Shown: positions 6,482 to 51,834 of the stretch, one piece after another
Layout of the letters: the number at the start of each line of letters is the position of its first letter
How positions within the stretch are numbered: the first letter of the stretch is position 1
Assembly: GCA_003971905.1 (NCBI GenBank)
Contig: RSEE01000007.1
Coordinates: 558,001-622,000, forward strand
Source of the DNA: Moniliella sp. 'wahieum'
Lineage: Eukaryota
Reading direction: 5' to 3'
DNA: 64,000 nt
Made by a program: the position numbers and the translations under genes
The notes under the pieces: generated by a model
Database searches by the model: none
The model's input: the letters and a program-made list of their open reading frames with translations, nothing else
Told to the model about the DNA's origin: nothing

Positions 6482-6615
6482 TGCAAGGGATGCGATGCGA
6501 TGCGGGCGGGGCGCGGCGGCTGCCTCGGCGCGCCGCAACCCAGGTTTGACGCTGAGCGCGTGAGGCTGGCCCGCGTCGGCCGCATCGGTTTCTCTCCTGC
6601 CACCAATCCACCGCC

Positions 6616-8899
6616 ATGTCTGGCTTTGACCTCGGACGCCAGTTCACCACCGCCATCCTTCCCGGCCAGGGCACCGAGGAGAGCGCCGCCTTTATTGCCG
6701 GCGCCACTTACGCCCAGGTCGAGGCGACGCTCTACGACTTTCTCCATGCCTTCCGTATCAACAACGACTACCTCTATCGCGACCGTCTGCGGGCCAACCT
6801 TGCGGCCAAGCAGTACGTTCTCGAGGTGGCTCTGGAGCATGTCCAGCTCTGGAATCAAGTTCTGGCCCAGGCCTTGCGCGAGCGTCCGGCCGAGGTCCTT
6901 CCTCTCGTACGTTCTCCCTTCCTTCACGCCCCCGCATGTTATGGCTATGTGCTAATCACCGTCCTTCCCTTTCCCAGTTTGAATCGGCCCTCCGCCGCGC
7001 TTCGCAACGCATCCTCTACCCTATTGCTGCCGGGGGAGAGAAGAACCGGCCCGAGGCGCCAGAGATGCAGATCACGCTCCGCTCTTCCGCCAACCTGGTG
7101 AGCATGCGTGACCTGCACGCCGACTCTATCACCCACCTGGTACGCGTACCCGGGATCGTGATTGGCACCTCTCAACTCGCCTCCCGCGCCGCCAAGTTGA
7201 CCATCATGTGCCGCGACTGCAAAGCGACCAAAGCGCTGTCCATCACAAGCGGGTTTAGTGGATTCACCTTGCCACGTAGGTGTGATGCTCCGGCACAAGA
7301 AGGTGAGGCAAAGCGGTGCACGCTCGACCCTTATGTTGTGATGCATGATCGCTCCACCTTTGTCGACTCGCAAACGGTCAAGCTCCAAGAAGCGCCCGAT
7401 ATGGTACCAACAGGGGAGCTGCCACGGCATATGCTCTTGTCGATCGATCGGGCGCTGTGTGGTCGTGTGGTGCCTGGGGCTCGGATTGTCGCGGCGGGCA
7501 TCTACTCGACCTATGCGCCTCAGGCAGCCAAAAACAATCCCGGTGCAGTGGCGCTCCGGACGCCGTACCTGCGTGTGATTGGTCTGGAGATTGATGCCGA
7601 GGGCGCAGCGGGACGAGGAGCGTCGCGTATCTTTACCCCCAACGAGGAGGAAGAGTTTCAGCGGATCGCGCGCCTTCCCAATTTGTACGACCGCTTTGCT
7701 AGCAGCATTGCCCCTTCCATCTATGGCAATACCGAGATCAAGCGAGCTGTGACTTGCCTACTGTTTGGTGGTTCCAAGAAGATTCTACCGGATGGCATGC
7801 GTCTCCGTGGGGACATTAATGTGCTGTTGTTGGGCGATCCCGGTACGGCCAAGTCGCAACTACTCAAGTTTGTCGAAAAGGCAGCCCCGATTGCGGTCTA
7901 CACCTCGGGCAAGGGATCCTCCGCCGCAGGTCTGACGGCCAGTGTGCAGCGCGATGCCAACACGCGCGAATTTTATCTCGAAGGTGGTGCCATGGTTCTG
8001 GCCGATGGCGGTGTGGTGTGCATTGATGAGTTTGACAAGATGCGCGACGAAGACCGGGTGGCGATCCATGAGGCCATGGAGCAGCAAACCATTTCGATCG
8101 CCAAAGCGGGCATTACCACCATTCTCAACGCACGCACCTCCGTCTTGGCCGCTGCCAACCCCGTGTTTGGACGGTACGACGAGTCGCGCACGCCCGGTGA
8201 GAATATTGATTTCCAATCGACCATCCTGTCCCGGTTTGACATGATCTTTATTGTCAAGGACGAACACGACGAGGCTCGGGACCGCACGATTGCCCGTCAC
8301 GTTATGCAAATTCACATGGCCGGCCGTGACGATGAGGTGGCGGAGGGAGAGTTGGACATGGAGACGATGAAGCGCTATGTGGCATATGCCAAAGCGCGCT
8401 GTGCCCCCCGTCTGTCAGCACGGGCTGCAGAAAAGCTGTCGTCGTACTATGTTTCGCTTCGTCGCCAGCTGGCCCAGATTGAGCAGGATGCCGATGCCCG
8501 CTCCTCCATCCCGATCACGGTGCGTCAGCTCGAAGCGATTGTCCGCACCGCCGAGTCGTTGGCCAAGGTCACGCTCTCCGTCTCGGTGGACGAGGCCCAT
8601 GTGGACGAAGCCATGCGATTGTTCCGTTTGTCGACGATGGATGCTGTCCAGGCTGCAGGCGCAGCGACCGGCGACCTGACACGCAAGAGTTGGCCGACGA
8701 AATGAACCGGCTGGAGCGGGACATTCGACGGCGTTTGCCCATTGGCTGGTCCACCTCCTATGCCAAATTGCGACAAGAGTTTGTGGACGCCCAGGGCTTT
8801 TCCCCACATGCGTTGGAAAAGACCTTGTTTGTATTGGAGAAGCGCGATGTGCTTCGCTTCTCCAACCAGCGCAAGGCTCTCACCCGTACAGGCGTGTGA
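6616..8899 (+). CDS. MCM5: DNA replication licensing factor Mcm5
   Basis: MSGFD start, Zn finger [40 protein letters not shown] (Walker A), IDEFDKM (Walker B), SRFD Arg finger, C-terminal winged helix. Intron ~6907-6978; 1-nt frameshift near 8685. Confidence 0.97.
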
Positions 8900-15070: not shown

Positions 15071-16780
15071 TTAGAACACGGGAGTGCCACGCGACGCCTT
15101 GCTTGCCGACAACCAAGCTGCATAATTCCACGTAAGCTCGCGTGCTCCCACATTCTTGCCCGTGTGGCGGTCGATTTGTTCCGACATGGAGCCGTTGGGG
15201 TAGGCATAAATCTGAACCAAGTCCCGCATGCCAGATGCCAAGTCGCGCATGCCTGCGGTAACCAAGGCAAAGGAGCTTGTGTGTTGGTGAGCGCGCCCCA
15301 ATCCAAGGCGTGGAACCCATTGAGAGAAAAAGGGTTGCGTGGCCGCAGTAACGTCGAGATAGTGGCATGGTCAAAGACGGTTGCCGCATTGTCCAGTACC
15401 TCGGCAGTGGCAAGGTGCACATGTACCATGGATTGCCACCTGTGCGTTCAAATCCAGCATAGTCATCCTCAGGGTAACGGCCAGTCAGAATCGCATGCGG
15501 TGCGGGCTTGTTCTGATTCAAGGGGTACAACGAGCGGAATGTGGAGAGGTATTGGTCCACCGTCGCAAGCATGCGCTGCGTCGCCGGTCCAAATTGCGTC
15601 TCGTCCAAACTTGACTCCACTGACGATTGGTTCCATCCATGGAGAGAGCCCAAGAGTAGAGCAGTCAACTCCAGACCTCCAGGGGACATGGTAGGCTTGA
15701 ACGCGCTGTGCTTTTTCCCAAAATCCTTGAAGTGTCTCAAGAACGTGGGCACCTTGGGTGCGGTAGAAGTTGGCTGCGGCATGGTCACCCAACTCATCAG
15801 CAAGGTCTGCGCCCTCCATAAGAGCACGCCGCTGCACAGAGAGGGTAAAAAGTGGCGCTCATTCAGCTCTTCCCACACTTAGAAGCCAACAAGGAGTCAG
15901 CGCCACAGTCGCAAACCAAGCAAAAAAGAAGTGCAACATACGATCAAATGTGGGCATCCACCAGTGATGCGCCACATATTCGAGGTCATTCTTGATGAGA
16001 GAGGATCCATCGAGGTTGGGGTGGTACAATAGATCTTTAGTGAACGAGTCGTTCAGGCCAATTTGACGCGCAAATTGGATGAGAGCGGTGGCGCGGAGTG
16101 CGGGTCCATCGGTCTGGGGGCGACCCCAAGGGCCCATGTAAACGCTTCCGTCGTTGACGTAGAATTTGGGCTCTCCTTGGCCGGCAGGCGCAGAAGCAGC
16201 GTTGCTCTGGTGAATCATCTCAGACCGAGCCCAGTTTTCAAGAAGAGTACGCAACGGGACAGCCAACGGGCCGGTTGGAGCCTGTGGGGTTGGAAGACAT
16301 GCTGCTCAATTGCGGCGTGAGGATGGGTAGCTGACCCGACCTGTTCGTCTCCATGCCGGTCCACAAGGATCTTGGCCACAAGAGCAGCGTCACGGGTCCA
16401 CGTGTAGAAGTAATCAGGCGCCTGTTTGGAAGGGGAGGCTACCACAGCTCTGTTCACATGCAGCACGTTAATTGGAGTCTTTGCGGAAAGACTGCGGAGA
16501 GGTTAGAGAAGAACGTACCCAGCCAGAGCACCTTCCACGTTTGTCTCTGCGCCAGCACCGCCGATGTTGGCCACGAGCTGCGGGGGGGAAGAGAGGAGGT
16601 GAGTGGGAGAGAGGAGGTGAGTCTGGGTACCTAAAGGGGGGGCTGGGAACGTACGCCAGCAAAGGCTGTTTCGTCGGTGACGCGGGTGGGAGGGTGGGAG
16701 CGGGAGGCGGGCCGAGGGACAGCGGCGGGAGCAGCAGTGCCAAGACAGGCAAGGAGGGCGGTGAGGAGGCTGAGGCGCAT
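15071..16780 (-). CDS. Secreted glucoamylase (GH15), no obvious starch-binding domain
   Basis: Signal peptide MRLSLLTALLACLGTA; VVASPS..PDYFYTWTRDAAL, GEPKFYV, WGRPQTDGPALRA, IKNDLEYV, WEE, GRYPEDDY, GGNPW, GSMSEQIDR.TG, LTWNYAA. At least two introns plus frameshifts. Confidence 0.93.
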
Positions 16781-18246: not shown

Positions 18247-21200
18247 CTAAGGCGAAGCAGAGGGAGGCAGTCGCACTTTGCGCAGCTCCACCAAGCCCAC
18301 AACATACCCGGCCTTCGCAGTCCGATGGCCGTCGTGTTGTTCGGCATTGCGCACGCCCTGGGCACGGGCGGGGGATCGTTCGTAGCCGATCGCATGGGCG
18401 CCCAAGTGGCCATCGCTCTCAGGAGAAATGTATTGGAAAGTGACCGGGTTTTGCGTCCGTTTGGCAGGCTGGTTGGAAGAGGGCGTGGTGCGTCCCATGT
18501 CGGCCGGAGGCAGAGCGAGCAACGTCTTTTCCAATGTCCATTCTTGCCTTCCTTTGGGCACCTTCATCCCTGCCCTGTCGCCCTTTTCATACTGCGGCCC
18601 ACCTCCCGCTTGGGTCAGTCCAAAGTCGGTAATGAGCCGGTCGAGCATAGTGTGCTGAGCCGTCATCATTACCGCTCGTCCACCCGGTTTGAGCACCGTC
18701 AACAGCGATGGCAGCAACGCGCGGTAAAACCGCCGAAGCTGGGCCGCGGTCATCACCTTCTGGCCCCATGGCAGGTCCGTCACCACTGCATCGGCTTGGG
18801 CTAGTTCGGCAGTTAGACCATCTGGGAGCACGGGGTCCCTGTACTTGGTATGATCCTGGCGACCGTCGTGGTGCCGCGGGGGCGCGAGTGGGGGCGGCAA
18901 AGACTCAGGGTTCTTTATCTTTGCTTGCCTTGCATGACCCACGGCATTCGGTACCTCCTCCCCTGCTAGCCAGCGTCCGAGCGGCCCAGGCTCGGCCGCA
19001 TCCAACAGATGAGTATACGTTTTGATTCCAGGTACAGAGGGCTCGGTGCGGCGGAGAAGCTCCCCAGTTCTCCAAACCGAGTCGGGGTCAATATCGCTCG
19101 CGAAGATCGACACGTTTTCTCCTCCCAATCTCATTGAGGCACTGGCGCAGCTCGGCCGGAATCCGGCCCATCCCGTACACGGTTCCAGGATCTTGGTCTC
19201 CTCGGGGGAGGGAGGAGAGGACGGACAGCGCAGCCAGGAGATAGGCGCGATCGGGACGCAGCAGCGTACCTCCCGCAAATAAGTCATGTTCCAGTTCAGG
19301 CCGCGCCGGCATGGAAGGAGGCGGAGGCAATTCCAACTGATGAACACGGCGCCGTTCGGTGGATCGGTAGCTGAATCGTTCATTGGCTCGGAAGCCATTC
19401 GGCGCAACGTCTCACCTCTTCTGGTGACCAGGTCGTGGGGGCACGAGAGAAGAGGCGCCCGACCAACCAATTGGGAACCAAGCGCACATGCACCACCAGT
19501 TCGGGCGTGGTGAGCTGCACAGGCCACGTCACAGCTGGGTCGCCCGGGTTGACCCCCTCGTTGAGCCACTTCCAAACCGTGTCCCCTAAAAAGGGGTTGA
19601 CCTTGGGGGTCTGGAGAGTAGGCAGCAAGTAGCCTCCGCGATTAAAGGAGACCTTGAACGAAGTGCCATGACCATTGTTGGCCTGAGGGCAAGGCCCTTG
19701 TCGACCATGTTCGGACCGGACTTTGCCCCACGTTTGCAGTGCCAGATCCCTTTGTTGCAGTGTCTCGGGAGAGTCCCATGCAGCTCGTAGCAACTGCACC
19801 ATGGCCCCCTCGGAGGGCGGAAGATCACGCAAGTCTTCCTAGGTGCTGGTCATCCTTCGCTTGTGGTGGGGCCAAGAGAGTATTCCTCTTCCCCTGTGCA
19901 TCAAGCTGCTTGTCATGGGGATCCAGTCGACCCACCTCGTGTCGTCCACCAACAATGTCCATCAGGGTAGGGGTGGCTTTATTCTTGTAGCCGCGTTTGG
20001 ACCGCTTGGCTTGCTCGCTAGTCCGTCCCAACGCTAGGCGCTCCGACATAAGTCGACGCGCTACCGCCAAGGGAAAGTCCGTTTCGCTCAGAACCAAGTG
20101 GGCACTTTGGGCGGACCGGATCCGTCCGTCCATCCAAGCGCGAAGGAGAAGCGTGGCTGCCGGCCCTGGTGGCACAGCAACCTGGCCCGAATGAAGGAAC
20201 GCTAACGTCGTCTCATCCTCTGCAACCTCTTTCTTGTACAGCTGGCTGTAGAGACGCAGCACCCGCCGCAAATCGTGCTCGGCCACCTCCAATCCAGGGA
20301 ACACGTCAAATGTAAGGGCTGTCGAGCACGGTATCAAGTGAGGCTGTTCTTCAGTACTCTCGGCAAGGACCAACGGGTTCTGAACCAAGCGGGTGTACCC
20401 AGGCTCCAACTGGAGCTGGGAAAGGTGCCCCAGTTCTTGGCATTCCAGTTCCGTCAACCCATCAGCGGAAAGCGGGTCCAAGTACGTATCAGTTCCCCGC
20501 TGGGGAGAGTCTGTTCGCCTCGCGGGAGTTCCAAGGTGCAGAGGAGGAGCGGAGCGGGCTTCTGGGGGAACCTGAAAAATAGTGGAGGTATCCTTGCCTA
20601 GTTGCTTGGCTTTAAGCCGAGCCGCACGCGCGGCCGTCATTCGCGCATGCCAATCGTCCTGCGCCCACCAGGTAGCTCGTCTTGGTACGACCACGAGTCT
20701 GACTCGTAATGGTATGCATGCAAGAAAATGAAAAGCGACTCAGGGTCCGGGTCAGGTAAGAGTGGAGTATAGCACTCGGAGCAAATCCCCTGGATCTTCT
20801 CGTTGCGGATCTGGTCCATGAATCGGCTACTCTCCAGCGAAAAGCCTAACTTGGACAAAATCTGTTCGCGCGTACCAATCGTGCCGGTGAGTGCAGCGGC
20901 TTGGGCATTGGCGCCCGGAAGTTAGCCGGGAGGGGGTACCCGTCATGCTCCAAAGTGAGGAAAACAGCGCCTCGTCTTTCCAACGAGCCTCATCGTCCTC
21001 CAAGTCGCGATGCCTCTTAAGAGTCGCAATTACCTTGTCCACCGCAGCACTGCCTGTGGACCCAGTCCCACCTGCAAGGGCGGTAAGCGACAAATCAACA
21101 GCTTCAGACGCCATGGAGGTGGCAGGAAAGAGGCCCAAATGTCGTGCCCGTAGAGTGGGTCATTGGCAATCGGGTGACCGAGGTACTGACAATGTACCCG

Positions 21201-22135
21201 AATCTGGTGCGTGCGCCCAGTGACCGGCTGTGCTTTGACAATCGAGGTGTCCGTCTCGGAATGGTAGGATATCCGCTCCAGGATCGTCTCGCACGGTCGG
21301 CCGAGGGGGTGAACATGTTGACGCCCGATTGAGCATCACGGGTAAGATAGGCTGTGGCAAACGAGGGGGCCGTCGGGGAATCTTCCGCGAACACGAGCCA
21401 AGTAGAACTTGCGTATCTGCCGGAACGGAACTGTTCACTAAGCTCGCGGGCCGCCGAGGGGGTGAGAGGACCATGACACCCGAGGTGAGGCGGTCGAGGC
21501 GGTTAGAAGTATAGATCTTGGGCAGTCCCGTTTGATGCCGCAGCATTTCAAGCAGGGTGTTGTGCTGGTACCGGCCGGCGGTGTGGACGGGAATAGAGCC
21601 CGGTTTGACGACCACCAGACGGCCCTGTTGGTCGTCACGATGGAGGATGCGGATGGGCTCAGCAGTGACGGGAGGCTCATGAATATGCGCTTTGTTGACC
21701 ACAACATCAGTCATGCGGAACACATGTCGCGGAGTAGCACGGGCACCGTTGACAGTGCACAGGCCTTGGTGCATGGCCCAGAGGTAGTACTCCTTGGTGC
21801 GGTCGCGGAACTCGTTGGTGTAGACCTCGAGCAACTCACGGCCTACCCAGCGGCGCTTGGTACTAGTTGTATAGTCCCACCAGTAGGGCGTCACCTTACG
21901 CAGCTGAAGACCCAGCAGCTGCGGGTCGGGGACGGATGGGTGGCGAGGGACGATGCCGAGGACATGGCAGCGGGGGTGCGGTGGAGGCCCCGGCAGGTGT
22001 GCAGGCAGCGGCGGTAGGTGGTGGTGGTGGTGGGGCGGCGGCGGCGGCGTGGGCAGGAGGAGGGCTATGTGGGGATGGAAGAGGAGACAAGAGGCAACAA
22101 CTGAGTGGAGGCTGCCGCAGCCGCACGGCCCTCAT
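18247..22135 (-). CDS. Putative bifunctional RNA-modification enzyme: RluA/RPUSD2(Rib2/Pus9)-type pseudouridine synthase fused to a THUMP-domain m2G methyltransferase
   Basis: N-half: [42 protein letters not shown] (catalytic Asp), [42 protein letters not shown]-half: [36 protein letters not shown] (THUMP-like), [47 protein letters not shown]. Start at 22135 or 21965. Domain identities are secure; continuity requires correcting several 1-nt indels. Confidence 0.8.
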
Positions 22136-41645: not shown

Positions 41646-43548
41646 TTATGGCTGGGCCGCCTGGTAGCGAAGGAAAAAGTCGCGCAGCTCCAGCGCCGAT
41701 TCCTTGAGGTAATGCGACAGCAAGCGCGTGTCCTGTCCGCGCGAGGTGAGCGTCCAAACAATCGACTCTTTCTTGATGGTGTAAGAGCAACCATAGCCAT
41801 CGTCCACCACCTCGCCGTACCCCCACGACGCAAAGCATTCCGACGAGATTTGCGACGTGGACAGCCGCCAGGTCGAACTCTCGGTAAAGGTAGGGTCGGT
41901 ATAGAGCAATGGTACGGCCTCATCGGGCTCAATCAGTTTCTTGAGCCCAAACAGGTGCCGGTCCACGCCCTGTGCTTCGCCCGCATCCTTGGCGTACTTG
42001 AGGTGCTGCGCTACAGCGGCCTGGAAGAGCGCGTGTAGCTCCACGTCCGGTACCGAAGCCGACAAGAACGCACGACAGAACTCAGTGCTCTCGGGGGAGC
42101 ACGACGAATGACTTCGGTGCGGCCCAGGTAGAATTTCCGCGTCTGCGCACTCTCGTACACTGGGCTCGGCTTGCCATACAGTTTCCAATAGGCCAGCTGG
42201 ATCACCATCTGAGCCCATGCATCGGGCGACACCTTGAACTTCTTGATGGCCTCCTTGCCGTACGCAACAAAATTCTGGACCTCCACCTCATGCTGGTCGA
42301 GCAATGTGGTAAAGTCGAGCTGGGCCTTCTCAATCGCCTTCTTGGCCGCCTCGTCCAGCTCAAAGTGCAAGCGCTTCGGCGCAGGAATGGTCGAGTCGTG
42401 GCTGGTGCCCATGTCGACCTTGCCTGCTTCGAGCGCGGCCAAGCAAAGTCGTTCATCCGCAACGTCGGTGTGCCATCCATGGTGCTGTGCTCGCCATTGT
42501 AGCCTGACACGCCATTGTCAAAGACCACCAATTGCTGCTTGTCAAAGAACCGGTTCAGCGCACCTTTCCCGCCCGTCCAAATGGCACGCGAAACGTCGGC
42601 AGGCAGCACAGGCGACGCATTGTCCAATGCCAATACAATAATCGCCGACTGGATCGTCTCGAGCGTCTGTTCATTGACCGGCGATGCAGCCAGCAAGCCC
42701 GTTCGCGCCTTGGCCCACTCGTCCCGGTCCACACCAGTCAAGGCGCCAACAGGGTGGGGGTCGGCCGTTGCGCTCTCCGGGTCTTCAAGGATGCGTTGCA
42801 GTTGCCACTGGATCTCCATCTCTGACAGCTCTTGTCCACTAGAAGGGTTGATGACATCAAAGGACCAGTACTTGCCATTGCGGAGAACGACAACGTGGTT
42901 GTGGGTGGTGGAGCTGTACTTGGTCGCATAGTCCACCGGCGTAGGGGGATGCGGGACGCATTGAAGAGCCAAGGGTACGCGCTCGAGTCCAGAGCGCCCG
43001 TCTTGGTGCTTTCCGGGGCCAGCTCGCCCGACTCGACGAGGCGGCGGAAGGCGAGGAAGGCCTTGAGCAGCGCCGGGGCGCGGGTGAGGTGGTGGTGGGT
43101 GCGGTCGTTGGTGTGGCAGTAAAAGTAGTTCACATAGGGCACGATGGGTCCGCGGTAGCCAAAGTAGGCGGTTTCGTTCCACCAGTCCGAGATCCAGTTC
43201 TCCGTCTCGGCTGCGCGCTTCTCGAGGCGGTGGAGGGTGCGGAACAGCTCGGCGTCCTGGCCGCCGAGGGCAGCGGTGACAGCAGCCTCGGTCTGGGCGC
43301 GCGGCAGGGGTGGCGTGGTGGGGAGAGTGGACTTGAGGTATTTGGGCAAGGTGTCGGCCAGGGCGGGGACGGGCAGCTTGGGAAGGGTGTGCTGCTGGGC
43401 AAAGAGGGGGCCGGTCAAGCCAGAGGCCGTCTGGGCGCCGACGAGCATGTCGGCATTGGTGGCGAGGGAGCGTGTGCCGGTGCGGGCGGGGCACGAGGCA
43501 GGCGGGGGTGCGCAGGCGGGCGCGCAGAGGCAGACGAGCGGCCAGCAT
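41646..43548 (-). CDS. CAT2: Carnitine O-acetyltransferase with mitochondrial presequence
   Basis: Arg-rich N-terminus MLAARLPLRARLR; LPKLPVPAL.DT..KYL, NW..DWW..AY, NRFFDK, GEHSTMDGTP (catalytic His), SPDAWAQM.IQLAY, YESAQTR.F..GRTE, GVDRHLFGL, LSTSQ, GYGEVVDDGYG. Confidence 0.93.
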
Positions 43549-44959
43549 CGTCGGTGGTGAGGAGGGCGGGGGGAGAGGGGGAGGTGGTGGGGCGGGCGAG
43601 GGAGGGAGGAGGGGAGGGGTGTGAAAAGGCGGGCTGAACGTTGCACTTGGTGGGAGCACCGCATGCATCCAGGCCACGCAGCGCAGGCAGCCCTGGCGCT
43701 GGGCCTGTCTGACTAGCTTGACTAGTGACTGCTGGGTGCTGCTCGGCTGAGCGGCTGGGACAGCGTGCTGGGGATGAGTCCAGCTGGTGATTAATCAGGC
43801 GGCGGCTGCGGGCCAACCAGCGCCCAACCCTGCGCGCCCACGCCCCCCATGCCCCCCCACGCCCCACGCCCAACCCAGTCCGCCCGGGCCGGGCATAGCC
43901 GCCAGCCGACCCCACACTGCCGCCGTGCCAGTGCGGACATGCCGGAGCCGGGCGCCGCGCCCATCACACACATTCTCCGCCCGCCGCCGCCCGCCAGGCA
44001 GCTCTGTGCCTGCCGAGTGCCTCCCCGTGCACAGCTACCGCCCGCAAGCAGAGCCGCCTCCGCCCGGGCCCCGGCCTGCATTTCAGCCCGGACGCGGGTC
44101 TGTACCTGCGCTGCCCCCGTGCTGCCGCATCCAGCCCATCAACCATCGCGCACCCTGCAGGGCACGCCACATGCACGCCGCACCACCCTTTCTCATGCAC
44201 CCGCCGGCTCCCCCGCTTCCACCTGCCCCCGGCGGCTTCCGCTTGAACGCATCGATGAACGCAACATTTACCCCGCACTCCCCCCACACCCACAAAAAAA
44301 CCTTCAAGGAAAAGACCCCATGGAAGCCGCTGTAGCGCCTTCGCAGGCCTCAGACATCTCACTCAGCAGTTTAAATTAGCTCTCACTGCTTTCTCTCATC
44401 GCTTCTCCCGCAGAGCAACCACAAAAGGAGTTTCTACGCACACGCCAACCAGGGAGCGAGCGGCTCAGGCGGGTTAATAGTTATTGAGCCATCAGGTGGC
44501 TCGTGTTTTGGCCATCAATCTCCCTTCAGTTCCTCCTCAGACCTGGGAGTTCCGTTGTTTTCTCTCTCCCGTTTTCCATGTCCACAGCTTAGCCCCTGGT
44601 GGCGAATCGCTGCTTGATGTTCCTCTGTAGGCGTTGCTGTGGTCATCTCGGACGATAGGAAGGGACAAGGGGAAAACGCTGACTTTTATCTATCCCACAC
44701 ACACAGGCTCGCTCTTCATCTCTAGTATGTGCTACAGCCTCTCGTTTTGAGTTAGGAGGCGAATGACGTTGTCATCCGATCCTCTTTTCTTGCTCGCTCC
44801 CGCCACCCTCGTCTTCAAAAGAGGATTAATGTAGGAGTAAATGGATTGCGAGAGAACACAAGATATTACATACACGAGCAGTGAATATCTCGATGAAAAC
44901 GTCTTAGTCACAGCGTTATGCATGTGAACGATACTGTGTTGCTAGAATCGGGTTCTCTT

Positions 44960-47322: not shown

Positions 47323-50300
47323 ATGCCTTCTACTGGCGCCTCTGCCGCCGCCGCCGCCTCGGGAGCCAGCCGGCTGCCGACGCCCCGCCCACGCACTCCG
47401 CTCCCTCCGACCTCGACGGCATCTCCGCCGCCTGCCTATTCCTTCCTCCCCGTCCCGCACCGCCGCCGCCCCCCCACGCGTCGCAGTCCGCGTCGTCTGT
47501 CACACCCGATGCCGTGCGCCACACCAACAAGCTCCTCTCCGACGGCGCGCATGCCCGGCCGAAAGCTACCTTGCAACAGCAGCAGGAGCCCGCTTCGACC
47601 ATCTGGCGCCTTGCGCCTCGCCTCAAGCCCAATGGCTCCACCGACGCGGAGGAGGAACCGCTGACCAACCTGCAAGCCGAGGTGGCCAGTTCCTCGCCTT
47701 TGATGATGCCGAAGGTACCGATGATGCGGCCACGGCCGCCAAGACAGCCATGGTGGCTACTGCGCATGAACTCATCGAGTCGGTCACCCACCTTCAACAG
47801 ACGGCCAATGCAACTCAAGGAGAGTCGCTGTTGGGATCTGTATCCAAGATCCTGGCGCTTCCTCGAATGACTGAGCGAATTGGCGGGGGCAAGACCCACA
47901 AGTTGGTGCCTCCATTTCCAGCTCTTTCCCCTTGTTCGACAACTCTTCTACCGACGAAGAGAAGCCCAGCCCACCACCCGAGCCGGAGGCGACCCAGGAG
48001 GCCGACGGCGATCGCTTGTCCGAAAGTGATACGAGACTCATGGCCAACTTGCTCGCTGGGTTACGTGCCAAGGTCACTAGCGATAAGGCTAGCATCGCAC
48101 GGGCCGAGGAGGAGAAGCAAGCGCGCAGCCAGGATATGGCCGGGCCAACACCAAAGAGGAGCTCAGGAAAAAGCAAGAGGTATTCATTTGTTTTGCCGGC
48201 GGTCGACGGCCTGCGAGTATGGAAGGCGTTGAGGATGATGCGGAACTCAGCCCTGCGCAGAAACTTGATTGTTTGGTCCAGGGTTTTGGACCCATCCAAG
48301 ATGACATACTGCTTCGAACTTTGGACAGGAAGCATTTGTACGTTCCCAACCCCTACTTGTCCCTTGGAGATGCTGATTCCTCTACTGCTGTCATAAGCTG
48401 GGTGACCAAGTTGGCGTTCTGATCAACGAAGTGGGGTTGATTGGTTACTTTGCGCTCACGACGCACCGTCTGTGCTTTGCGGCGTATATTCCCAACATGG
48501 AGCACATGGCCGTGATGAATGCGCTAGCCAGTTCGAACAAAGATGGCGCAGACGATGTGTCGGCTGCGCCGCGCGCCAGTGAGCAGTTGGCCGGCCATCT
48601 CATCCTAAGAGCGGTTCTGCCGTGCAACACGTCGGCTAGGGTGTTTCTGCCTCATTGTGGATCGCGGGTTTGGCTTCAACTCCGTTCCGAGGGCCTTTTC
48701 GTCTTCAGTTCGAGTGAGGTAGAGGCGCTATACGAGCCCTTGGACATTTTCGCTTTGCGGACATGTTTTCTGTCGAGCCAATTTACCAACCGGCCCAAGC
48801 AAACTTTGTTCACTTTTCGCTCAAAAAGGCCGACGGCACCAAGGGAGAACTGGTTCGGTTTGAGTTTGGTACTCAAGTTGGTGCGCTCGATTGGCGTCGT
48901 GAGCTTCGATCGGCTCTTTTTCGTGCACATTTCTCCGCCAACTTTGTCCGCGTGTCCCTCCCCCTCGCCCAGATTACTCAGGTGTTGCAGCACAGCACAT
49001 CCCACAACGTGTTGCTCCACCTTGCGTTCCCTCCTGGGCAAGTCCGGACGCATGTTGGGAACCATGGTAGTACGCACCATGAACCATCAACAGGGGAGAT
49101 GAGCCATCTCTTCTTATCCCAGCACAACACTCTGACCCATCGCTATCCTTGGCCGCTCGCCCATGGCAAGTGGGCTGATGGCCAAGTTTGAGGCGGCCGT
49201 GCGGTCAGTGGCATCCAAACAGCTTCCTCGTGACCAGCTTGGTCCCGAATGCAAGTTGCAATTGCTGATTGACCAAGAGGCGAGCATGAACGCGGCCACT
49301 CTGGCGTCCCACCACCCCAAAGGCAAACGGAGCCCACTCCGTTTCTACCCCAACCAAACCGCTGCAGGAATCCGAGGTGGCCGAGGTGGCTCAGGAACTA
49401 GCCTTGGATCCGGCGAGTGTCAAAGCAATCTACCATGCCCAGTTGTGGAAGAACATGGTGCCCACCCGAGGTCACCTGTGCATATCATCTGACTATTGGC
49501 TTCATTCGTGAGCACGCGGTCAAAGACGATTACCGATTGCGCATCCCCACTACCCACCTTAATGGGGCGAAAAAAGCCAAGGGACATTTGACGTTTTCAG
49601 CCTTGGTGCTTCAAGTCAAGGGCCACGAAGACATTTGGTTCTTATTTGGGTCGAAGCACGAACGCGACGAAGCGCTTGTCCAGACCAACGAAGCTGTTCA
49701 CCACATCCGTCGCCGCCTTCAGGACGCTTCGCACGGAAAAACACGCTTATCGCGGGCCTTGGTGCAACCCACACTGCCCACCTCGTGGCTCAACTATGTA
49801 CCCAAAGCTATCAACACGGACGGTACCTTCCAAATCCGCATTCCTCCGCGGCGATTTGCATTGCGGTCATTGGCTCACGAGGGGACGTGCAACCGCTGAT
49901 CGCACTGGGCCAAGTCTTGATGCAACACAAGCACACGGTCCGGATCGTGTCCCACCCGGAATACGAAGATTGGGTTCGTGGTCACGGACTTGACTTTGCT
50001 GCGGCCGGGGGCGATCCGGGGGCGTTGATGGCGCTGTCGGTGGAGCACCGTCTGTTTTCGCCGGGCTTCTTTACCGAGTCGGTGGCCAAGTTCCGTTCGT
50101 GGCTCGACGATCTGCTGCGAGAAGTGTACGAGGGATGTTACGATGCGGATGTGATTCTCGAGGCGCCGCAGACCATGGCGGGCATTCATGTGGCGGAGCG
50201 ATTGGGCGTGCCTTATTTCCGTATCTTCACCATGCCCTGGACCAAGACGGCGGCCTACCCACAAGCCTTCAGTGTGCCGCCGGTCGACTTGGGCAGCCAC

Positions 50301-51834
50301 TACAACCTAATGAGCTACACGGTGTTTGATCAAGTCTTTTGGGCGGCCAGTTCGGGGCAGATCAATCGATGGCGCAAAAACATGCTCGGCCTCAAACCCA
50401 CCGACCTGGCCGAGTTGGACCAAGCCAGCGTACCCTTCATTTACAACTTTTCTCCTGCCGTCGTACCCGTGCCCACCGACTGGGACGATAACATTTGTGT
50501 TTCCGGGTACTGGTTCCTCCCCACCCCAAGACCGAATGGGATCCGCCCAAGGAGTTGCCTTTTTGAAAGAGGGGCGCAAGCAAGGCAAAAAGTTGGCCTA
50601 CTGTGGCTTTGGCTCGATTGTCGTCGACGACCCCGATGCGATGACGCGCAACTTGTATGCGGCTGTGGAGAAGGCTGGGGTGTATGCAGTGGTGGCAAAG
50701 GGATGGTCGTCCCGTATGAAGAAGCAAGAACAAGCGGAAGGGACAGAGGAACCGATTCCGGTCCCGAGCTGTTGTTATGTCGTTGATTCCATCCCGCACG
50801 ACTGGCTCTTCCCTCAGATTGACATTGCGCTGCACCACGGCGGAGCCGGTACGACGGGTGCTTCGTTGCGTGCCTCGCTTGTCACCGCCATCAAACCCTT
50901 TTTTGGCGACCAATTCTTCTGGGCCCAGCGCGTACAGAAGTTGGGCGCTGGTGTGCGGGTGGCGTCGCTGTCGACCAACGATTTGGCTTCGGCATTGAAG
51001 AAGGCAGCTGAGGATCGGATCATGCGGGAGAAAGCGCAACAAGTCGGTGCCAGCATTTCTACCGAAGATGGACCAGCCAAGGCGGTCGAGTTTTTGTACG
51101 ACAACCTGATGCGGGCTCGTCGCCATCCTCGGTTCCGTGAGGACCTGTGCGTGCTAAAGGAAGACCAGCTTGTTTTCTACCCAACGCGGGAGGAAGGAAA
51201 GGGGGAGGAAGAAGAAGAAGAAGAAGCGAAGGAGAAGGTGACGGAGAAGCATGCAAAAGGCGCAAGCACAGCGGACATTCGTACCTCCCACACCCGCGAC
51301 TCATCCCTCCACTCTTCCCACAGTGCACCTCCCGCTTCGCCCACAGAGGAGGCCCATACCGATACGAACGGGGCGGGGACCAGTCCGCCTTCTACACCCT
51401 CTACGCCCAAACGACTGCTTCACAAGATTGGGAGCAAGTTGAATTTGGCGAGCGACGAGGCGAGCGCAGCTATCTCGACGGGATCGTTGCCACTCAAAGA
51501 AACGACGAGCTTGCTACCGCATTTGCCCAGCCTGCCCAACGTACCCACTCTGGACGGTATGCCCAAACTCTCGCTGGTTTCGGCCATGCGGCAAATGGTC
51601 GATTCGGACGAGTGCGAGCAAAGCGAAGTCAACCGGGCCGAGCAGAAACATGCGTCTCTCTCGGTCGCACTGGCGGACCAGCTGCATGCGCGTCAATTGC
51701 TGCCCAAGCAAATTGAATTGCGCCTGGCCCAGCGCTTGGCCCAGCACACCCACGACATGTACCTCGACCAAGGTTCTCCCTCTGCCACTGACCGGGATGG
51801 CCTTCCCGCTTCAGCGGGGCAACAACCACACTAG
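47323..51834 (+). CDS. ATG26: Sterol 3-beta-glucosyltransferase (UGT51/Atg26-like; PH/GRAM-like region + GT1)
   Basis: IGSRGDVQP.IALG..L..H.VRI.SH.EY..WV..HG..F..GGDP..LM, AGIHVAE.LG.PYFR.FTMPWTKT, LHHGGAGTTGASLRA, IKPFFGDQFFW. Upstream PH/GRAM-like segments. Many frameshifts; start approximate. Confidence 0.92.

Follow-up and report, generated by a model that had tools for sequence, protein, structure and literature searches.

The locus described here lies in a 64,000-nucleotide stretch of the Moniliella sp. 'wahieum' assembly (GCA_003971905.1, contig RSEE01000007.1, positions 558,001 to 622,000 of the forward strand). This whole stretch is referred to as the window, and all coordinates are window positions. 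On the minus strand, from 22135 to 18247, the sequence holds one fused gene of about 1,300 codons, in which an RluA-family pseudouridine (Psi) synthase is continued by a THUMP-containing, S-adenosylmethionine (SAM)-dependent methyltransferase module. The motifs quoted in a preliminary description of the locus (NRLDRLTSG, CSECY, FLHAY.Y, FDVFPGLE, SDID and DLPWG) were all found on this strand within the gene. Methyltransferase motif I had been misread: the string given as ILEPCTGMG is actually ILEPCTGW, 'GMG' belongs to the neighbouring frame of another frameshift, and relatives read CTGWG. Pfam placed PseudoU_synth_2 (PF00849) on two of the raw open reading frame (ORF) pieces and UPF0020 (PF01170) on the last one. 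The synthase is split by frameshifts, so that one piece passes the PF00849 cut-off of 26.8 bits (35.5 bits) and another falls just below it (25.2 bits); the methyltransferase ORF reaches 38.5 bits on PF01170, for which the cut-off is 22.3. The Pfam THUMP model (PF02926) gave no match on the window pieces or on three full-length relatives, P0001-P0003. The two catalytic domains expected from the preliminary description were in this way recovered, and its THUMP domain was seen only by structure.

The reading as a single gene rests on relatives of its middle part. A search for longer proteins with the 304-amino-acid (aa) middle frame returned three single proteins, P0001, P0002 and P0003 (1,322, 1,199 and 1,255 aa), each of which carries PF00849 together with PF01170. 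In a frameshift-aware protein-to-DNA alignment, the window is colinear with residues 84-1320 of P0001 from 21924 to 18265, and 818 of the 1,204 aligned codons (67.9%) are identical, with zero stops. No intron-like gaps (long DNA-only gaps) occur in this alignment; introns are therefore not required, and the gene is read as intronless. The alignment includes 14 one-base frameshifts, ten of which need a base added and four a base removed. The probable start ATG lies in another frame than the main ORF, which calls for at least one further indel in the low-complexity N-terminal leader; a single correction does not suffice. The frameshift predicted at the junction of the two halves was indeed found. 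It was recovered at 20671-20677 against each of the four reference proteins (P0001-P0004), and the corrected ELP-WWAQDDW corresponds to KLPWWAHDGW in P0001. The proposal that one C had been lost there held as far as the one-base shift is concerned; since no homopolymer enrichment is seen at the shift sites, a C is one of several possible one-base fixes. The stop-free frame 19825-20739 has 304 codons, about 282 of them past the junction shift, which agrees with the approximately 280 announced earlier. It opens with ..WWAQDDW and includes FDVFPGLE, so that even without correction it connects the synthase WWA-DW motif to the N-terminal ferredoxin-like domain (NFLD) of the second half, which supports one protein. 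The junction motif LP-WWA-(x)-D-W is present in 40/40 fused homologues. In stand-alone members of the family, the median distance between LPxWA (carried by 84 of 141 representatives) and the C-terminus is 12 residues, and the methyltransferase module is thus attached exactly where the synthase normally stops.

Table 1. Parts of the fused gene in window positions; domain boundaries were transferred from the relative P0002.
Feature	Position	Strand	Description and basis
Whole coding region	18247..22135	-	raw length about 1,295 codons; aligned to P0001-P0004 with frameshifts allowed
Probable start ATG	22135-22133	-	first residues resemble the N-terminus of P0001
N-terminal leader	21925..22135	-	three-frame translation; Pro/Ala-rich, Arg-containing, without acidic residues
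S4-like RNA-binding domain	21691..21903	-	mapped from P0002 residues 30-100; full-length RluD aligned to model residues 35-460
RluA-family pseudouridine synthase domain with family-specific C-terminal extension (CxxC, FLHAY.Y, LPWWA.DW)	20635..21681	-	PF00849, TIGR00005 (in relatives), RluA structural match
Catalytic motif NRLDRLTSG, Asp codon	21495-21493	-	sequence
Synthase motif [10 protein letters not shown]	21222-21193	-	sequence
CSECY and FLHAYHY	~20780-20710	-	sequence
Junction frameshift site GAG CTA CCT GGT GGG	20664..20678	-	one base missing between LP and WW codons
TGA closing the synthase frame as read	20637..20639	-	out of frame after junction correction; overlaps ATG 20640-20638
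Linker (about 104 codons), conserved in part and mostly disordered by prediction	20323..20634	-	pLDDT <50 at P0002 residues 489-535; alignment to P0001
NFLD, from FDVFPGLE	20029..20322	-	beta-alpha-beta-beta-alpha-beta at P0002 residues 565-666; Trm14/TrmN alignments begin at model residue 563-564, chain residue 0-1
FDVFPGLE	~20310-20287	-	sequence
Variable disordered insertion, NFLD to THUMP	19845..20028	-	pLDDT <50 at P0002 residues 668-705; poorly conserved
Helical insertion and THUMP-fold domain	19325..19838	-	within model residues 564-1194 matching Trm14 (347/368 residues); no Pfam THUMP match
Class-I (Rossmann) SAM methyltransferase, UPF0020 type	18271..19282	-	PF01170; long insertion ahead of the last strands
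Motif I ILEPCTGW	19185-19168	-	sequence; relatives read CTGWG
Motif II SDID, Asp codon	19095-19093	-	sequence
Motif IV DLPWG	18777-18763	-	sequence
Stop codon TAG	18249-18247	-	end of the fused gene

The fold of the protein was approached with an AlphaFold2 model of P0002, built from a 40-sequence alignment (mean predicted local distance difference test score, pLDDT, 77.8), and the structural comparisons were made by VIA-align. The model is disordered (pLDDT <50) at residues 489-535 and 668-705. The closest structures to the whole C-terminal module were Trm14 (model residues 564-1194; Z 21.7; 347/368 residues, chain 1-368; root-mean-square deviation (rmsd) 3.1) and TrmN (563-1193; Z 21.4; 331/332 residues, chain 0-335; rmsd 4.1). 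They were followed by RlmL-type proteins (~558-1198; Z 18.5-19.7) and by archaeal Trm11 (~564-1193; Z 16.0, with an rmsd over 8). This superposition of the whole module on Trm14 and TrmN indicates that the triad of NFLD, THUMP and methyltransferase is present in the fungal protein, with large insertions. At the level of fold, and in the relative P0002, the predicted structure confirms the THUMP domain that Pfam misses. The N-terminal half matched RluA over model residues 104-446 (Z 21.0; 203/217 residues) and full-length RluD, including its S4 domain, over 35-460 (Z 18.9; 280/321 residues; rmsd 9.2).

Membership of the synthase half in the RluA family is clear from the relatives, which score 213.7-215.8 bits on TIGR00005 (rluA_subfam; cut-off 192.7) and 89.7-97.4 bits on PF00849. 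The catalytic Asp of NRLD is invariant in 40/40 fused homologues and present in the window, and the features of the RluA group, an S4-like domain and a C-terminal LPxWA, are both found, the latter after the one-base correction at 20671. In the methyltransferase half, E-P-C-x-G of motif I, the Asp of motif II and P-W-G of motif IV are likewise invariant in all 40 fused proteins and present in the window, and the motif IV variant D-L-P-W-G aligns with DPPYG of archaeal Trm11. Such invariance of SAM-binding and catalytic motifs among the 40 fusions, none of them from Malassezia, argues for an active enzyme. Searched against the PDB, the 40-sequence profile matched TrmN (7.5e-9), Trm14 (1.9e-5) and Trm11 (~0.03), in each case in the methyltransferase core only, and phmmer with the window methyltransferase ORF alone returned archaeal Trm11 only, as a weak match (E 0.83). 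Protein-language-model neighbours fell into UPF0020 clusters, several of them with THUMP and including THUMPD2 and THUMPD3 (score 0.94), and serve as leads only. No deaminase family was found in P0001-P0003, and PF00383 occurs in 0/40 fused proteins and only in P0094 among the 113 long homologues introduced below. At the beginning of the NFLD, the window reads FPGLE-VAE (20287-20310, minus strand) where 40/40 fused homologues have G-x-E-D; the Asp codon of GLE-D-VAE is missing as an exact gap of three bases, whereas the other indels of the gene are of one base.

When proteins of 727-2,314 aa were searched with P0001, 113 homologues were obtained, and 40 of them carry both PF00849 and PF01170. 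The two domains do occur in single fungal proteins, and these relatives are not two genes. Organism names are attached to 19 of the 40 fused proteins, and 18 of these 19 are Ustilaginomycotina, a placement looked up for three of the holders and presumed for the rest. The holders are Tilletiaria, Thecaphora, three Sporisorium species, two Ustilago species, two Pseudozyma species, Kalmanozyma, Melanopsichium, Testicularia, Violaceomyces, Ceraceosorus, Microstroma, Jaminaea, Sympodiomycopsis and Parajaminaea. Judged from these sequences, the fusion is common to the whole fungal subphylum. The nineteenth named protein, P0026 (1,010 aa), is a fusion of the Ustilaginomycotina type, but is deposited under the fern Adiantum nelumboides and probably comes from fungal DNA in the fern assembly. 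Among the best 150 matches of a representative search, the long two-part proteins were P0002, P0005, P0009, P0029, P0024 and P0046, together with P0043 from Malassezia; the others match the query in its synthase part and are, with few exceptions, shorter synthase-only proteins. Stand-alone relatives of the C-terminal half (query P0001 residues 620-1322) were sought among proteins below 727 aa, and none was found at E <= 0.001 in 8,000 word-sharing candidates, which is weak evidence.

In the databases, the named fused proteins are entered as 'pseudouridine synthase', 'related to DRAP deaminase RIB2', 'tRNA pseudouridine(32) synthase, mitochondrial' or 'hypothetical', without any mention of a methyltransferase, and RPUSD2 is also among the annotations of named homologues. 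The preliminary description knew of no account of this architecture. Literature searches indeed returned no description of a synthase/THUMP-methyltransferase protein, but the arrangement already stands in annotated proteins of the 18 named Ustilaginomycotina. As it is found in deposited, automatically annotated proteins, the window gene is an orthologue of known, uncharacterised entries.

A variant of the protein is seen in Malassezia. Nine Malassezia-type homologues (P0037, P0038, P0040, P0042, P0043, P0045, P0050, P0052 and P0064; about 760-1,410 aa, with Malassezia names on six of the nine) cover the C-terminal region. They retain the synthase and an NFLD/THUMP/methyltransferase-like module, and 838 columns of the profile are matched by P0043. 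All nine have lost motif I (GxG), D-L-P-W-G of motif IV is present in 0/9, and this form looks like a catalytically dead methyltransferase kept behind an intact synthase. The maintenance of the module without methyltransferase motifs suggests that it has a non-catalytic role too, probably in RNA binding.

The two halves can be compared with several known systems. Pus8 and Pus9 are described as making cytoplasmic and mitochondrial Psi32, respectively (PMC5699540), and RPUSD2 as making Psi31/32 in mitochondrial tRNA (PMC13022450). Like the fused protein, Pus9, Pus8/Rib2 and RPUSD2 have an S4-like and an RluA domain, the catalytic Asp motif and a C-terminal extension with LPxWA. Proteins of the Pus9/RPUSD2 type end about 12 residues past LPxWA and Rib2 goes on into a DRAP deaminase, whereas the fused protein continues for about 800 more residues, which form the NFLD, the THUMP domain and the methyltransferase, and has no deaminase. 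On the other side, Trm14 of archaea and TrmN of Thermus are given as the enzymes of N2-methylguanosine (m2G) at tRNA position 6, THUMPD3 as the human one, and the THUMP domain as the part that holds the tRNA 3' end (PMC8599901). The whole NFLD-THUMP-Rossmann module superposes on Trm14 and TrmN, which are also the best PDB sequence matches of the methyltransferase half. However, the fungal module has about 630 residues compared with about 350 in Trm14/TrmN, with large insertions and with sequence likeness in the methyltransferase core only; moreover, unlike these enzymes, it carries D-L-P-W-G as motif IV and is placed behind a pseudouridine synthase.

The eukaryotic, Trm112-dependent m2G methyltransferases THUMPD3, THUMPD2 and Trm11 share the THUMP plus UPF0020 architecture with the fused protein, a likeness that stops short of established orthology. 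Pus10 belongs to a catalytic family of its own, has its THUMP domain at the N-terminus and is not known to contain a methyltransferase. It is like the fused protein in that THUMP and Psi synthase are united in one protein, and is the one known protein of this kind (PMC5699540, PMC8599901). In the fused protein, by contrast, an RluA-type synthase stands at the N-terminus, and THUMP is part of the methyltransferase module. RlmKL (YcbY) also joins a THUMP-UPF0020 module to a second RNA-modifying domain, and its N-terminal half matched the model with Z 18.5-18.7. It differs in having a second methyltransferase (m7G) as the partner domain and in acting on 23S rRNA (PMC3367195).

The explanation that we consider probable for the locus as a whole is the following. 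The relatives contain one conserved ORF with the domain folds named above, and the catalytic motifs are intact. The window copy would be one intronless gene of an Ustilaginomycotina-type basidiomycete, whose product of about 1,300 aa consists of two catalytic modules joined by a flexible tether. The first module is an S4-like domain with an RluA-family synthase of the Pus8/Pus9/RPUSD2 group, which by analogy would form Psi31/32 in the anticodon stem-loop of tRNA. The second combines the NFLD and THUMP with a SAM-dependent amino-methyltransferase of the Trm14/TrmN/THUMPD3/Trm11 class, and, as the known enzymes suggest, would grip the tRNA at the acceptor/CCA end and make m2G in or near the acceptor stem, at position 6/7 or, less likely, at position 10. 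The 14-15 frameshifts would be errors of an unpolished assembly and no true lesions. A bifunctional enzyme of about 1,300 aa had been proposed in the preliminary description. The single two-module protein is borne out by the three relatives, the 40 of 113 homologues and the predicted structure; the two activities, their target positions and the action of both modules on the same tRNA are inferred.

Several observations weigh against this explanation, some of them on the state of the gene and others on the target of the methyltransferase. Among the former is the indel density, about 3.7 per kb compared with about 0.8 per kb in MCM5, which places the gene high in the range of the window. A homopolymer origin of the indels was rejected, the mean longest run at shift sites being 2.64 compared with 2.61 in the background; the earlier assertion that the same class of error affects every gene stands as regards other window genes being frame-broken and finds no support as regards a homopolymer class. 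In addition, five of the 103 residues invariant in the 40 fused homologues differ in the window and one, an Asp, is missing. The fusion could be ancestral and real in the relatives and the window copy nevertheless a genuine pseudogene, with the frameshifts present in the DNA of the organism. A count of 14 frameshifts over 3.7 kb, to which the leader adds one or more, is denser than the two in about 2.4 kb of MCM5 and would fit such decay, as would their lack of concentration in homopolymers and the deletion of an invariant Asp. A pseudogene that had gathered 15 indels should, however, also show nonsense and radical changes. Instead, the 1,204 aligned codons contain zero stops, the corrected translation retains 97 of the 103 invariant residues, and every catalytic motif of the window copy is intact. 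Breaks of the same kind are found in essential and housekeeping genes of the window: the carnitine acyltransferase is split over four overlapping frames with abutting Pfam profile coordinates, the GH15 glucoamylase over at least four frames and the essential MCM5 over three. The assembly appears indel-rich throughout, and since these other genes, MCM5 included, are frame-broken too, assembly error is the likelier cause; we judge a pseudogene to be quite unlikely. The junction itself could also be read as the border between two separate genes, a synthase ending at the TGA 20639-20637 and a THUMP-methyltransferase starting at the ATG 20640-20638. The raw sequence does contain this stop/ATG overlap (ATGA). 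Against it, the downstream frame is already open 33 codons before the ATG and encodes the WWA-DW half of the synthase C-terminal motif, 40/40 relatives run straight through, the Met is not a conserved residue, being absent from P0002, and the gene has 13 further frame breaks of the same kind. Two genes are, in our estimation, highly improbable.

The observations on the target begin with the family models. In two of the three proteins scanned (P0002 is not listed), NCBIfam Trm14_Arch reaches 24.7-24.8 bits, where the cut-off is 280; TIGR01177 reaches 19-40 bits, where it is 316. The first of these values is far below the equivalog threshold, so the likeness to Trm14 and TrmN is one of fold and architecture, not demonstrated orthology. 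With a methyltransferase sequence far from every curated family and no Pfam THUMP match, the target cannot be read from orthology. The tRNA modification m2G6 is stated to be absent from fungi (PMC8599901), a statement of that source which rests on yeasts; the same source describes THUMPD2 and THUMPD3 as not conserved in fungi, and THUMPD3 is described as having no yeast orthologue (PMC10415138). The literature searches also returned no experiment on any of the fused proteins. Accordingly, a real fusion might carry a THUMP-methyltransferase half that is not a tRNA m2G6/7 enzyme but a tRNA-binding handle, or one that methylates tRNA G10, mitochondrial tRNA, U6 snRNA or rRNA. The Malassezia proteins, which retain the module with motif I and D-L-P-W-G lacking in 9/9, are in line with a handle, and RlmL-type rRNA methyltransferases are structurally nearly as good a match (Z 18.5-19.7) as the tRNA enzymes. 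THUMPD2 is reported to act on U6 (PMC11014329). Moreover, the composition of the leader might be that of a mitochondrial presequence, in which case mitochondrial tRNAs would be suggested as the substrates; both RPUSD2 and Pus9 are described as mitochondrial (PMC13022450, PMC5699540). Against another target or a mere handle stand the SAM-binding and catalytic motifs, invariant in the 40 non-Malassezia fusions, and the fact that the best whole-module structural matches are two m2G6 enzymes. On balance, this alternative is considered unlikely.

The two-module explanation can be extended to a more specific proposal, which we put forward as tentative and rather doubtful. In Ustilaginomycotina, the acceptor-stem m2G would be made by a Trm14/TrmN-like module tethered to a Psi31/32 synthase, possibly without Trm112. 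A single THUMP grip on the CCA end would couple two distant modifications, perhaps on mitochondrial tRNA, and Malassezia would then show that the grip itself is needed by the synthase.

Both halves belong to well-known kinds of enzyme; it is their covalent union for which no literature description was found, and the names under which the sequences are public are uninformative or wrong. Should both halves be active, a fungal lineage would possess an m2G enzyme of the Trm14/THUMPD3 type, against the current view that tRNA m2G6 and THUMPD2/3 are absent from fungi. The protein would further offer a natural system in which to ask whether two tRNA modifications about 50 Å apart arise in one binding event, and the dead methyltransferase module of Malassezia would be a natural separation-of-function variant.

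Another combination with the synthase domain was met among the long homologues: 19 Aspergillus proteins of about 950-1,100 aa (P0073, P0075, P0076 and P0078-P0093) carry PF00849 together with FAD_binding_4 (PF01565), and represent either a further fusion peculiar to one lineage or gene models that were repeatedly merged. The surroundings of the fused gene have a guanine plus cytosine content of 52-67% and fungal gene content, the neighbours including MCM5, Tom22, DASH Ask1, a DHHC palmitoyltransferase, a carnitine acyltransferase, a GH15 glucoamylase and others. Gene calls on such an indel-rich assembly will split the fused gene and many others. A sterol-type glycosyltransferase is likewise present in two overlapping frames (49563-51831, plus strand), and the frame-broken carnitine acyltransferase, GH15 glucoamylase and MCM5 lie at 41649-43712 (minus), 15074-16305 (minus) and 6556-8896 (plus), respectively.

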